In this document: positions 3,180 to 6,931 of the stretch, piece after piece
How positions within the stretch are numbered: position 1 is the first letter of the stretch
How the letters are laid out: each line of letters opens with the position of its first letter
Virus genome (UHGV): UHGV-1357920
Reading direction: 5' to 3' (one strand)
DNA length: 10,730 nt
Source: a virus
The notes under the pieces: model-generated
Databases searched by the model: none
Told to the model about the DNA's origin: nothing
The model's input: the letters and a program-made list of their open reading frames with translations, nothing else
Made by a program: the position numbers and the translations under genes

Positions 3180-3719
3180 ATGAGTAACTGGTGGCAGGAA
3201 CTATTACGTTTCTTCCTGCGTGGTCTTACGCTACAACAGTTAATTCATATGCTTATTATTTTAATTGCCTTGATAATAATCACCCCCGCATCAATTAAAG
3301 AGTGGGTAGATATAAGGAACCCAGAAATACTTCCAGATCACTGGATGTATTACGCAATGCTTTTGTGTATCAGTTATGTTCTGAACAGGGTGATGGAGTT
3401 TATATTTCTGGCATCTTCAGACAGATATAAAAAATATCTCAGTAAGAGAGATGAGGCTAAAGTAATTGTGGAGACTGAGCGCCTGTTCAATTCTCTGAGT
3501 ATTCAGGAAAAAGAGGTTTTAGCATTTGCTGTTATGGCAAATAACAAAATCGTACTTAAGCACGGCGATCCGGTCGCTTTATCTCTTATGAGAAAAGGCC
3601 TTCTCCATCGCTCAGGTGTGACTTACAGCGCGTCAGGTAAAGAGAAATTTGTTATACCTGACGTCTGGTTCCATGAGTGTTATATGCGCTTTGCTGGTAA
3701 AGCTGATGAGCTAATTTAG
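3180..3719 (+). CDS. sieB: SieB-like superinfection exclusion membrane protein, 179 aa
   Basis: Plus-strand ORF embedded among leftward pL-operon genes and convergent with N (its 3' end is 22 nt from the N stop), the arrangement I recall for lambda sieB. N-terminal hydrophobic helices (LIHMLIILIALIIITPA; YYAMLLCISYVLNRVMEFIFLA); SD GGAG 8 nt upstream. The call is based on position and membrane topology, not on a verified alignment. Confidence 0.5.
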   Translation: MSNWWQELLRFFLRGLTLQQLIHMLIILIALIIITPASIKEWVDIRNPEILPDHWMYYAMLLCISYVLNRVMEFIFLASSDRYKKYLSKRDEAKVIVETERLFNSLSIQEKEVLAFAVMANNKIVLKHGDPVALSLMRKGLLHRSGVTYSASGKEKFVIPDVWFHECYMRFAGKADELI

Positions 3720-3725
3720 TTCCTC

Positions 3726-3753
3726 GACGGCGGGGGATCGTCACCTCGCCGTC
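3726..3753. terminator. GC-rich hairpin at the convergent sieB-like / N junction (possible bidirectional terminator)
   Basis: Inverted repeat GACGGCG (3726-3732) / CGCCGTC (3747-3753), extendable to about 10 bp with a G-U pair. It overlaps the N stop codon and is followed on the plus strand by a partly T-rich tract (AGTTGTTTGGATTT). Confidence 0.4.
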
Positions 3754-4124
3754 AGTTGTTTGGATTTCCGGTAGCCTGCCGCGTAAATGGCTACGTTTGG
3801 AAGACATACACCAGTTTCTGGTTGCTTATGTCCAAACTCATTCGCGTACACAATGGCCGCTCGCTCCAGATTGCGTCTGTATTCTTTCTGTTGCCAGATC
3901 ACGTCCTGTGCCATGAACTTAATTGGCTTAGCGTCTTCTATGCGCTCAGGCGTTTCGTGAGTACCTTTAGCCTGAATCTGCGCTCTGCTTAGAGTAGGGC
4001 GGTGTAATACTTCTGAACTTATTGCTTCTTCGCGGGCCAGCACGCCGTTAGCTAATGCCTTTGCCTTTAAACGCTCACGACGACGAGAACGTGAATTGCC
4101 TTTGAACTGAGTTCTGCGTGTCAT
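3741..4124 (-). CDS. N: N-type transcription antiterminator, 127 aa
   Basis: N-terminal arginine-rich motif (GNSRSRRRERLKAKALANG). The C-terminus ...AIYAAGYRKSKQLTAR closely resembles the C-terminus of P22 gp24/N as I recall it. SD AGGAGG upstream; a P22-type boxB lies in the leader. This is the first gene of the leftward early operon. Confidence 0.8.
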   Translation of the reverse strand: MTRRTQFKGNSRSRRRERLKAKALANGVLAREEAISSEVLHRPTLSRAQIQAKGTHETPERIEDAKPIKFMAQDVIWQQKEYRRNLERAAIVYANEFGHKQPETGVCLPNVAIYAAGYRKSKQLTAR

Positions 4125-4289
4125 ATAGACCTCCTGATGAACTTTGGTGGTGTGGTAGGTGGGAGACCCATTTCGACCTGTTTCGGCCTACTTCAATTCG
4201 GCAATAGTCCCGCAGGCCTCGCCGCTTTACGTGCGACATATTCCCGTCCATGAACCCTTCACCACACCCCAAAGTTCACTTTGGTTATT

Positions 4290-4304
4290 GCGCTTTGTCA
4301 GCGC
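4290..4304 (-). promoter_or_regulatory. nutL boxB hairpin (GCGCUGACAAAGCGC on the transcript)
   Basis: Plus-strand gcgctttgtcagcgc is the reverse complement of GCGCTGACAAAGCGC, which matches the P22 nutL boxB as I remember it. It sits about 60 nt downstream of the proposed pL start and about 165 nt upstream of the N start codon. No convincing boxA (CGCTCTTA-like) was found next to it. Confidence 0.7.
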
Positions 4305-4372
4305 CGTAGATTCATATTCGAATCGTTGTATATTCACCGCCCTGGTGAGTAGTGCGTCCTGCTGATGGGTGA

Positions 4373-4416
4373 ACTTTATCGAAATGATAAATTAATGGCA
4401 ATAGCAAAATGATAAA
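4373..4416 (-). promoter_or_regulatory. pL promoter with OL operators (17-bp TTTATC-N5-GATAAA palindromes)
   Basis: OL1 at 4375-4391 is the perfect palindrome TTTATCgaaatGATAAA; OL2 at 4400-4416 is AATAGCaaaatGATAAA. On the minus strand the candidate -35 is TTGCCA (plus 4401-4396), followed by a 17-nt spacer and -10 TAAAGT (plus 4378-4373). The layout closely mirrors PR on the other side of cI. Confidence 0.5.
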
Positions 4417-4596
4417 TTTTCTTGGTTTTCAAATATCGTATTGATTCTTATGGTGTTTTATTTTGTTGTAGGAATTCGACAGGATAAATAAAGAGATTTG
4501 AGGGAGATCTGGATTGCGTTGTTTAGCAAGTTGTATCTATCAATTTTTCAACAAATACAATTGGTTATGTGTTTTTAGGTGTGGGGATCGTCAGGC

Positions 4597-4622
4597 AAAG
4601 AAAACCCGGCGCGGAAGCCGGG
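4597..4622 (-). terminator. Rho-independent terminator (minus strand) ending the cI / 341-aa-gene transcript (lambda tImm equivalent)
   Basis: Stem CCCGGC (4605-4610) / GCCGGG (4617-4622), loop GCGGAA; followed on the minus strand by UUUUCUUU (plus 4597-4604). It lies 14 nt past the stop of the 341-aa gene. Confidence 0.7.
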
Positions 4623-4635
4623 GTTAGATTTTCTG

Positions 4636-5661
4636 TTATGGGCGAGTGATGGTTGATGCGTTTCCGTTTTCTATTACACCTGCTCGTATCGTGTAGCTTC
4701 CCAAGATTTTTACTGTCCTGTTTTCTTTCATTGCATCAAACAGTATGGCGATCTCGTCTTTATCATCTATGAACGACGTGTCCACCGAAACAGGGAAACT
4801 GTCTTCACTAGATGGTTCGCGGCAGCTTAGGGTTATCTTTTCCGCAGTACGCTTGATTCCATCAATGACTAATTCAAGGTTTCTTTCTTCTTTTTTTGCT
4901 TTTTCGATAGGGTTTTTGATTAGTTCGTGGATTTCTTTGTTAGACAGTTCAACTGTGCTTGCGCCTGATATGACAATTTTGTCAGCATCAGACGCGCCTT
5001 TTAATACCCCTGTATACGCTTTTGCAGTATGCTCTTGAATCCCTTCGGCGCGCTCTACTGCATCTATGCCCGCTTTAGCTCTAATCGCCTCAAGCATTCC
5101 GTCCCTTAATATCGTCATGCGCTCGTTTTCTGATTTAATCTTGGCTTCTTCGAGCTTTGTTTCTTCTTGCTTGACTTCTACTTCGGCTTTTTTCTCTAAG
5201 TATGATGTACCAACCCATGCACCGCCTATAACGGTGACAGCAAACAAGAAGCATAATGTTTTTTGGCTAGGACTCATACCGTGTGTTACCTTCTCAAAGG
5301 CTTTACCGAATGCTTCAAAAAGCTCTGTTAATGCAGCAAGTATATCAGTACAACCTTCATTAATGGTAAAGATGATCTCTGCTTCTTCTTTATCTTTACC
5401 GGTTAACCTTTGAAGGTTGTCAGTTTTATATTTTATTAGTGTGAAAACTTTATAAATTTCAGTCTGAAATTCGCATAAACCCTGAGCTAGAGGAGATGGA
5501 AGCGTTCCGTTGTAGCGAGAAGGATCACCATAAATCTTAAAATTCACATTATTGAAGAGGTCTAACTTGATCCTGTCGATAGTGATCTCTTCGCCACCAT
5601 CTAACCTTGCAAACAAAGATTCAATGTCGTCCAGACTTGAAACATTAATAATATCTTTCAT
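4636..5661 (-). CDS. Hypothetical 341-aa single-pass membrane protein in the cI-downstream (rexAB-equivalent) slot; candidate lysogen-expressed exclusion/defence protein
   Basis: Intact ORF with SD AGGTG 5 nt from the ATG, immediately downstream of and co-oriented with cI. One predicted TM helix (about LCFLFAVTVIGGAWVGTSYL), a soluble N-terminal region of about 130 aa and a K/E-rich, probably helical, C-terminal region. AT-rich; followed by a strong terminator. No known motif recognised. Confidence 0.75.
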   Translation of the reverse strand: MKDIINVSSLDDIESLFARLDGGEEITIDRIKLDLFNNVNFKIYGDPSRYNGTLPSPLAQGLCEFQTEIYKVFTLIKYKTDNLQRLTGKDKEEAEIIFTINEGCTDILAALTELFEAFGKAFEKVTHGMSPSQKTLCFLFAVTVIGGAWVGTSYLEKKAEVEVKQEETKLEEAKIKSENERMTILRDGMLEAIRAKAGIDAVERAEGIQEHTAKAYTGVLKGASDADKIVISGASTVELSNKEIHELIKNPIEKAKKEERNLELVIDGIKRTAEKITLSCREPSSEDSFPVSVDTSFIDDKDEIAILFDAMKENRTVKILGSYTIRAGVIENGNASTITRP

Positions 5662-5741: not shown

Positions 5742-6446
5742 TCACGAACTTTTCAGCCATTCCCTTGCCTCGATGTCATCCAGATGGCGAGACTGCTTCA
5801 GAATACCAGCAACATACTCCACCTTTGCTACTTGATGATAAGGCAACGTTATTGGCCTGTGGTCCTGGTTGATGCTTGTAAATTGGTATTCTCCATCTCT
5901 GTCATAGCCAAGAACCTTAATCATGTTGTGTCCTTCAACGGTTCTGACAAACACCTCATCACCCGGGAATACTTTGGTGTTAGGCTCAATGAGTACATAT
6001 TCTCCTGATTTTATTCTGGGCCACATGCTGTCTCCTTTCACACGAAGACCAAAGGCATCTGGATCATCGCTATAAATTTTGAGCCACCCATCGCGCTCTT
6101 CGGTCATCTCGATGGCACCATCAACACCAAGAATTGCCTCACCAACCACGCGCACTAACCCTTTTCTTACCTGACCGACAAAAGTTAAAGAATCTGAGCA
6201 TGATGCAATTGGTGTTACATCATGTACCAAATCAAGCCACCCATTAGGTAACCCAAGCGCGGCTTCAAATTTTCTTGCTAGTTTATCCCCTATGTTTCGA
6301 GTGCTTTTTTCACCGGAGACTTGCGTGAGTTGAGAAGGGCTAACCCCAAGCTTATCGGCAAAGCTTGCATTAGTGTTACCCGCGATTTTTTTATGCTCAT
6401 CTAGCAAAAACGCCAGATTCGATTTGCGAATATCTTTGTTTTCCAT
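5742..6446 (-). CDS. cI: CI-type prophage repressor (N-terminal HTH plus C-terminal S24/LexA-like autocleavage domain), 234 aa
   Basis: The N-terminus has an XRE-type HTH (...ASFADKLGVSPSQLTQVSG...). The C-terminal domain carries the S24 peptidase signature GDSMWP (Ser nucleophile) and a downstream Lys (MIKVL). It is divergent from the cro-like gene across an operator-rich 113-bp spacer. Confidence 0.85.
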   Translation of the reverse strand: MENKDIRKSNLAFLLDEHKKIAGNTNASFADKLGVSPSQLTQVSGEKSTRNIGDKLARKFEAALGLPNGWLDLVHDVTPIASCSDSLTFVGQVRKGLVRVVGEAILGVDGAIEMTEERDGWLKIYSDDPDAFGLRVKGDSMWPRIKSGEYVLIEPNTKVFPGDEVFVRTVEGHNMIKVLGYDRDGEYQFTSINQDHRPITLPYHQVAKVEYVAGILKQSRHLDDIEAREWLKSS

Positions 6447-6793: not shown

Positions 6794-6831
6794 GTAACAC
6801 CGCTATTTTCACAATGGACATTCGTCCTACG

Positions 6832-6846
6832 TCGCTGACAAAGCGA
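6832..6846 (+). promoter_or_regulatory. nutR boxB-like hairpin (UCGCUGACAAAGCGA)
   Basis: TCGCTGACAAAGCGA has the same loop (UGACAAA) and a near-identical stem to the nutL boxB, and lies between cro and cII where nutR is expected. A weak boxA-like CGCTATTTT sits at 6801-6809, but the 22-nt spacing is atypical. Confidence 0.55.
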
Positions 6847-6931
6847 GTCCCAATATATCTGACCAACTAAGGCCATATGCGTTTCCACGCATACCTTTCA
6901 ACTAACTATTCACTATTGGAAATCTTAAGAA

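Follow-up and report, generated by a model that had tools for sequence, protein, structure and literature searches.

The window, by which we mean the whole stretch of 10,730 nucleotides analysed from the UHGV virus genome UHGV-1357920, covers the immunity and early-left region of a lambdoid prophage of the Shiga-toxin type. Over bases 3700–4650 the identity to Stx1a-converting phages is 98–99% and that to H-19B 97%. The gene for the antiterminator N (127 aa) occupies positions 3741–4124 on the minus strand; it was taken from the ORF list and assigned by Pfam (PF25694, N_peptide, E = 2e-15), and its ORF shares 97–99% DNA identity with the annotated N of H-19B and of Stx phages. A consensus scan placed a sigma-70-like, pL-like promoter on the same strand at 4373–4401 (-35 TTGCCA, 17-nt spacer, -10 TAAAGT). 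The transcript would start at A4366, and the start AUCAGCAGGACGCAC is identical to the +1 region of lambda pL. This position agrees with the GenBank annotation of HK106, which was transferred to the window through an ungapped match of 98.5%.

All elements of the N leader lie on the minus strand. The mapped HK106 annotation and the sequence together mark nutL, with a boxA-like CGCACUACU (4348–4356) and a boxB GCGCUGACAAAGCGC of the P22/H-19B type (4290–4304), which is identical to the nutL boxB of P22. The spacer dyad GAUUCGAAUAUGAAUC between them (4309–4324) forms a perfect 5-bp hairpin, GAUUC GAAUAU GAAUC, within nutL and is present in all folds. The Shine-Dalgarno (SD) sequence of N, AGGAGG, is found at 4130–4135 and its AUG at 4124–4122.

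A second boxB, UCGCUGACAAAGCGA, is present on the rightward side (6832–6846, plus strand). No CUUUGG...CCAAAG frame, which characterizes the N leader as described below, was found at 6800–6931 (plus strand) ahead of the cII-like gene; the nutR-cII leader of lambda is likewise without this frame and the lambda N leader has it (NC_001416). Like its lambda counterpart, the stem is confined to the N leader.

An ORF of 341 aa (4636–5661, minus strand) lies between the S24-type repressor gene (5742–6446) and oL/pL, in the position of lambda rexAB, and is followed by a strong terminator-like hairpin (4605–4622). It had no Pfam match. Its counterpart in PhiR12_1, of equal length and in the equal position upstream of pL, is annotated as 'T2SS GspM containing protein'. 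This ORF may be a prophage-expressed moron.

Helix P1 and the upstream hairpin P0

In the leftward (pL) transcript, G4279–U4261 pairs with A4156–U4137 to form a helix, here called P1, which consists of 11 bp, a bulged A4148 and 8 bp, in total 19 bp with one terminal G:U. The 5' arm, GUGAACUUUGG GGUGUGGU (4261–4279, minus strand), contains a boxC-like GGUGUGG, and the 3' arm reads ACCACACC A CCAAAGUUCAU (4137–4156, minus strand) including the bulged A4148. P1 encloses 104 nt (4260–4157), and C4136 separates its end at 4137 from the SD at 4135–4130, which therefore begins 1 nt downstream of the helix. A sequence-only reading of the window had proposed an inverted repeat at this site, with arms complementary apart from a single-nucleotide bulge and with the 3' arm ending 1–2 nt from the SD of N, and recomputation of the pairing bore out both points. 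Its duplex of about 16 bp enclosing about 105 nt was also recovered, except that the helix is slightly longer than had been proposed.

P1 was present in the MFE and centroid structures of folds of 201, 311 and 282 nt (z = -3.0 and -3.6), with pair probabilities of 0.86–1.0 in the partition function. Folding of the pL leader thus favoured the long-range duplex, as the sequence-only reading had anticipated. The longest helix of the leader is 19 bp, compared with a maximum of 17 and a mode of 8–9 among 300 dinucleotide shuffles, and the arm-to-arm duplex has an energy of -34.3 kcal/mol as against a mean of -16 and a best value of -23 for shuffled 3' arms. An extended stem of about two helical turns, 19 bp and a bulge, is therefore the dominant structure, and it is situated in the pL transcript between nutL and the ribosome-binding site of N.

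A very stable structure in leader RNA would also be expected of a transcription attenuator or terminator ahead of N. The 3' arm is followed by CCAAAGUUCAUCAGGAGG, which has no U-tract, the loop would comprise 104 nt, and N must be made without antitermination. A terminator scan detected no intrinsic-terminator-like (Rho-independent) site at the repeat, and we consider termination at this stem very improbable. Scanning of positions 3500–4800 against Rfam (E <= 10) returned no relevant family, with two chance-level matches only (E = 0.55 and 7.7). A small ORF of 65 aa runs through the element (4075–4272, minus strand); it was rejected as a gene, as its phi80 version stops in frame after 19 codons and its substitutions follow the pairing and are not codon-like.

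An additional copy of CCAAAG, the 'anti-arm', is located at 4279–4284 (minus strand); 4 nt lie between it and the CUUUGG downstream in the 5' arm. Pairing of CCAAAG (4284–4279) with CUUUGG (4274–4269) around a UGAA loop gives a hairpin, P0 (4269–4284, minus strand), which is mutually exclusive with P1. In the partition function P0 has a probability of 0.99 as long as the nascent RNA lacks the 3' arm, and this falls to 0 once the leader is complete. P0-like hairpins, with loops varying in both length and sequence, are seen in most of 53 upstream contexts, those of lambda and P22 included. In two loci the 5' arm covaries with the upstream copy and not with the 3' arm (CCGAAG/CUUCGG in L018 and CCAAAC/GUUUGG in L036). 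These observations suggest, as a hypothesis, that P0 is a selected folding intermediate or else the 3'-end hairpin of a cleaved NUTL fragment.

Conservation of the frame and exchange of the interior

BLAST searches with the leader gave an unusual pattern of matches. In phi80, phage Louie and VT2phi_272-type phages only the segment bounded by the repeats was matched, and H-19B and Salmonella phages aligned in two pieces, the outer stem being kept and the interiors being different. The matched segment sits between the nutL boxB and the N start, and the N genes are unrelated among these phages: Louie has a lambda-type N, phi80 its own N, and several further N types occur. Viral contigs were then covered by three scans, one for the conserved interior of the window and two for the frame CTTTGGGRTGV...CAYCRCCAAAG. 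The scan for the interior yielded 120 loci with 44 unique variants. Over all types, the loci reduce to 58 distinct arm sets; their interiors fall into at least 12 clusters, and the proteins encoded downstream begin with about 30 different hexapeptides. N leaders with the frame include those of P22, phi80, H-19B, 933W and HK97. P22 gene 24 has the same layout.

Compensatory change among related phages, which the sequence-only reading had named as a check on its proposal, is evident in the arms. For sequences with the interior of the window, called type W (31 distinct sequences), all 19 of the 19 P1 pairs are supported, 97% of cells are paired and changes on both sides occur at 5 pairs; sliding the register by 1–3 columns as a control left 35–48% of cells paired. 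Across the 58 arm sets, 20 positions of P1 (11 outer and 9 inner) are paired in 81–100%, with up to 6 pair types at the variable positions. Beyond the ninth inner pair the pairing falls to 22–28%, which serves as a built-in control. A core of 10 bp, CUUUGG/CCAAAG plus G(G/A)UG/CA(C/U)C, is essentially invariant, and the bulged residue is a purine in 58 of 58 arm sets (A in 42, G in 16). The arm duplexes of the different loci measure 18–26 bp and have energies between -26 and -42 kcal/mol; for shuffled arms the range is -11 to -20 kcal/mol. In most loci the CCAAAG core ends 6–11 nt before an SD-like motif. The terminal pair 4279:4137 of the window is G:U, as is this column in 23 of the 31 type W sequences; since such frequent G:U pairs fail in DNA and in the opposite strand, the structure is specific to the N-sense leftward RNA.

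These data bear on the possibility that the repeat is a feature of the DNA, be it a mobile insert of the MITE kind, a junction where mosaic exchange takes place by recombination, or a palindrome bound by protein. The repeat-bounded segment does match alone within otherwise unrelated phage sequence, breakpoints of inter-phage homology fall in or near the arms, and CCAAAG is directly repeated on both sides. Against this, the segment holds a constant functional position between boxB and the SD of N, and both its compensatory changes and its G:U pairs make sense solely in RNA of the N-sense strand. A target-site duplication is contradicted by the flanking CCAAAG copies, which differ where the hairpin covaries (L018 and L036). 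Type W was found in 578 of 5,426 complete E. coli genomes, in which it is unannotated, with a median of one copy per positive genome, which also speaks against a DNA-level feature. A mobile insert in particular was rejected, as every copy lies in an N leader and the pairing is specific to the RNA sense. We give hardly any credence to an explanation at the level of DNA.

Genome contigs were also scanned with GCACGTAAAGCGGNGNGGC, which gave 111 matches; three of them have the other conserved blocks of the element, and the remaining 108 are taken as chance matches in unrelated bacteria.

The interior domain of type W (4157–4260, minus strand; 104 nt) is a conserved structured module whose internal fold is partly resolved. 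A hairpin is located at alignment columns 50–71, and a helix GGCCUG/CAGGUC contains two compensatory pairs. An RNAalifold model and a manual model of the interior each pair in 98% of cells, with two-sided changes only in the manual helix 72–77:110–115 (compensatory at 75:112 and 76:111). In the records of 933W and 24B, nutL is the sole annotation of the leader and the interior is unannotated. Louie (CDS0041) and PhiR12_1 (XSB41591.1) carry a 'hypothetical protein' annotation over the interior region (L002 1503–1637, L127 483–617); the interior of PhiR12_1 is of the H-19B type. These 'proteins' are probably artefacts of gene callers on structured RNA.

Several features of the interior raise the idea that it is itself a product: cuts in the closing helix would free a type W RNA of about 105–125 nt, which would have a function of its own by acting as a decoy, in trans or as a module that binds protein. 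Type W is 90–100% identical in the N leaders of phages with unrelated N genes and differing boxB, its manual helix carries the compensatory changes just described, its hairpin loop motif GAAGAUAAG is common to other interior types, and it is present in VT2phi_272-type phages without a downstream N ORF. On the other hand, at least 12 interior types share the same frame, so no specific interior is required, and a high identity can stem from recent modular exchange. Neither an Rfam match nor a record in the literature searched was found for such an RNA, it has no terminator or Hfq-type features, and the known prophage sRNAs map elsewhere. We regard an excised, functional interior as distinctly unlikely.

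Two further observations on the interiors were made. Four loci with otherwise different interiors (L241, L244, L126 and L003) have a common hairpin with the loop (G)AAGAUAAG, the stem of which covaries (CCGG/CCGG, CCAG/CUGG and GCC/GGC), and UGAA follows most 5' arms. These features hint at a common ancestral core or at a sequence-specific contact. In VT2phi_272 (L004 1500–1960) and in ArgO145- and PA2-like phages, type W follows a phi80-like nutL with no N-like ORF downstream; its place is taken by a promoter-like TTGACT-17-TATATT, after which a structured stretch, containing a terminator-like hairpin and a U-run, leads up to a gene of the Rha family.

Relation to the lambda N leader and to other systems

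The N leader of lambda (NC_001416) reads boxB, ...AAGG CUUUGGGGUGUGUG, 92 nt and CACACACC-A-CCAAAG CUAACUGACAGGAGAAUCCAGAUG. The arms of the window, CUUUGGGGUGUGGU...ACCACACC-A-CCAAAG, are thus to be compared with CUUUGGGGUGUGUG...CACACACC-A-CCAAAG in lambda, and a short form, CUUUGGGGUGUG / CACACC-A-CCAAAG, is common to both. Since the lambda N leader has the same arms and the same bulged A, the arms of the window are sequence homologues of the lambda N-leader stem, which is the only long duplex in the fold of the lambda leader.

The two leaders agree in the location of the stem in the pL transcript between the nutL boxB and the SD of N, in their near-identical arms with the same bulged A, and in a long-range helix that closes a structured domain of about 100 nt. 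A competing CAAAGC...GCUUUG hairpin precedes the stem in lambda as well. They differ in the sequence of the interior, which is unrelated and measures 104 nt in the window and 92 nt in lambda, and in the base of the helix, which is extended in the window to within 1 nt of the SD, whereas the conserved CCAAAG core of lambda ends 9 nt before an SD-like motif. They also differ in the N protein and boxB, which are of the H-19B/P22 type in the window. The suggestion of the sequence-only reading that the repeat is the equivalent of the RNase III-sensitive structure of the lambda N leader is supported by the homology of the arms, the shared bulged A, the shared position and the covariation.

The RNase III-sensitive structure of the lambda N leader was reportedly described in work by Steege and colleagues in 1987, Kameyama and colleagues in 1991, and Wilson and colleagues in 1997 and 2002. 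The cuts in lambda reportedly fall at about +88 and about +197, within a stem of +83–96 / +187–201. To our knowledge, cleavage by RNase III and regulation of N through such a leader stem have been demonstrated solely for lambda. The experimental RNase III site of lambda is taken to be the stem predicted by our fold, on the grounds of position and of review statements. Reviews describe the lambda N-leader stem as cleaved by RNase III. According to PMC5725501, which cites Wilson 1997 and 2002, N translation is repressed by N/Nus bound at NutL, with a highly structured leader in between. Searches of the literature found no RNase III cleavage or expression data for leaders of the H-19B/933W type, and a full-text search that included three sequence strings (one of them also as RNA) found no description of the element.

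The stem also invites comparison with other systems. We take the 5' arm of P1 to correspond to the G/U-rich 'boxC' of nut sites. In the rRNA operon as in the N leader, an antitermination site with boxA and boxB is followed by a G/U-rich boxC, which is the 5' strand of a long-range helix. The rRNA boxC helix closes only after the long intervening RNA has been made (PMC10250234), and the leader-trailer stem for 16S processing is cut by RNase III (PMC4807359). In the Nus-tethering model of the rRNA system, boxC is kept close to the channel through which RNA exits, where it can meet its partner. The rRNA helix differs in that it encloses the 16S rRNA (about 1.5 kb) as against 55–105 nt in N leaders, in that it serves ribosome assembly and not the translational control of a downstream gene, and in that its sequence likeness is restricted to a GUGUG-type motif. 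The boxC-like 5' arm and the rRNA leader-trailer helix form a close functional parallel.

Another dyad is known from the same phage family and the same leader. The hairpin at 4324–4309 is presumably the spacer dyad of the H-19B nut site, for which Neely and Friedman in 2000 reportedly found that its pairing and not its sequence matters and that it affects antitermination by N. That dyad lies between boxA and boxB, unlike P1, which is downstream of boxB and beside the SD of N. The RNase III sites of adhE, S. aureus cspA and lambda cIII resemble P1 as helices in a 5' UTR beside a ribosome-binding site, and RNase III processing there shortens the leader and raises translation. In these cases the ribosome-binding site is usually base-paired, in contrast to the window, where the SD is outside the helix.

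Proposed role in N translation

By homology with lambda, the element is probably an RNase III-sensitive N-leader structure of the lambda type that controls translation of N, with cleavage and translational effects both inferred. P1 closes a structured domain of 142 nt in the pL leader between the nutL boxB and the ribosome-binding site of N. During transcription of the leader, the upstream CCAAAG would first hold the 5' arm in P0, a role that we infer for this hairpin, and on emergence of the 3' arm the far more stable P1 would displace it. Positioned 1 nt from the SD, P1 could hinder binding of the 30S subunit sterically, and it could put the NUTL-bound N/Nus complex beside the N start, by which N would repress its own translation. 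Cutting of P1 by RNase III would leave an N mRNA with a short unstructured leader and NUTL detached, and translation of N would consequently rise with the RNase III activity of the cell.

Sequestration of the SD by base pairing was unsupported by the partition function. The unpaired probability of the SD is 0.53 before and 0.47–0.59 after simulated processing, and that of the 30S footprint (-20 to +19) goes from 0.42 to about 0.54. Since the SD is neither newly base-paired nor freed in the model, an effect on translation would therefore be steric or would act through the proximity of NUTL, as proposed for lambda.

It is also conceivable that the stem acts by RNA architecture and needs no cleavage, either compacting the leader such that the N/Nus/RNAP complex bound at NUTL is brought onto the N ribosome-binding site for autoregulation or guiding co-transcriptional folding, RNase III being incidental. 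The leader domain is compact and conserved, and a structured leader has been considered possibly important for the compactness of the NutL-RNAP loop (PMC5725501). Binding and cleavage by RNase III are separable in the regulation of N, as rnc70 affects it by binding without cleavage (PMC8708148), and in the rRNA boxC helix structure outweighs sequence (PMC10250234). However, the lambda stem to which this stem is homologous is, according to reviews, a target of RNase III cleavage, and a regular duplex of 19–26 bp is a canonical substrate of this enzyme. We consider a purely architectural role unlikely; such a role would complement rather than exclude processing by RNase III.

A simple processing-site model does not account for the sequence conservation of the bulged purine, of the 10-bp core and of the interior module. 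A more elaborate model, possible rather than probable, is that the stem is one state of a conserved two-state P0/P1 device built on the invariant 10-bp core and bulged purine (the nut boxC), which frames exchangeable interior cassettes. After cutting by RNase III, P0 could re-form as a 3' hairpin protecting the NUTL RNA, which stays tethered to the antiterminating polymerase, and type W would become a separate RNA that serves a role of its own.

As a lambda-type N-leader structure, the element belongs to a known kind of control element, to which leaders of the H-19B/933W/HK97 type add a member of modest interest. Worth pursuing are the definition of the frame across phages, the hairpin that competes with the stem from upstream, and the interior cassettes that can be exchanged. 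Of the regulators, N is made first upon infection or induction, and it drives the cascade of Shiga-toxin phages that ends in toxin expression; if RNase III gates N as it does in lambda, the growth state of the host would tune the early decision and the induction of toxin phages through this stem. The definition of the element by its invariant core, purine bulge, exchangeable interiors and upstream hairpin could aid annotation in hundreds of prophages whose records at present either omit the element or mistake it for a small ORF. It also gives the old, poorly understood boxC of nut sites a concrete structural role, in parallel to the rRNA leader-trailer helix.

Two leaders with a lambda-type N (L251 and L056) are natural broken-stem variants, in which the 5' arm, or else the element's 5' half, has given way to unrelated sequence; the arm duplex of L251 reaches only -16.7 kcal/mol. 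Both could be used as natural tests of the function of the stem.
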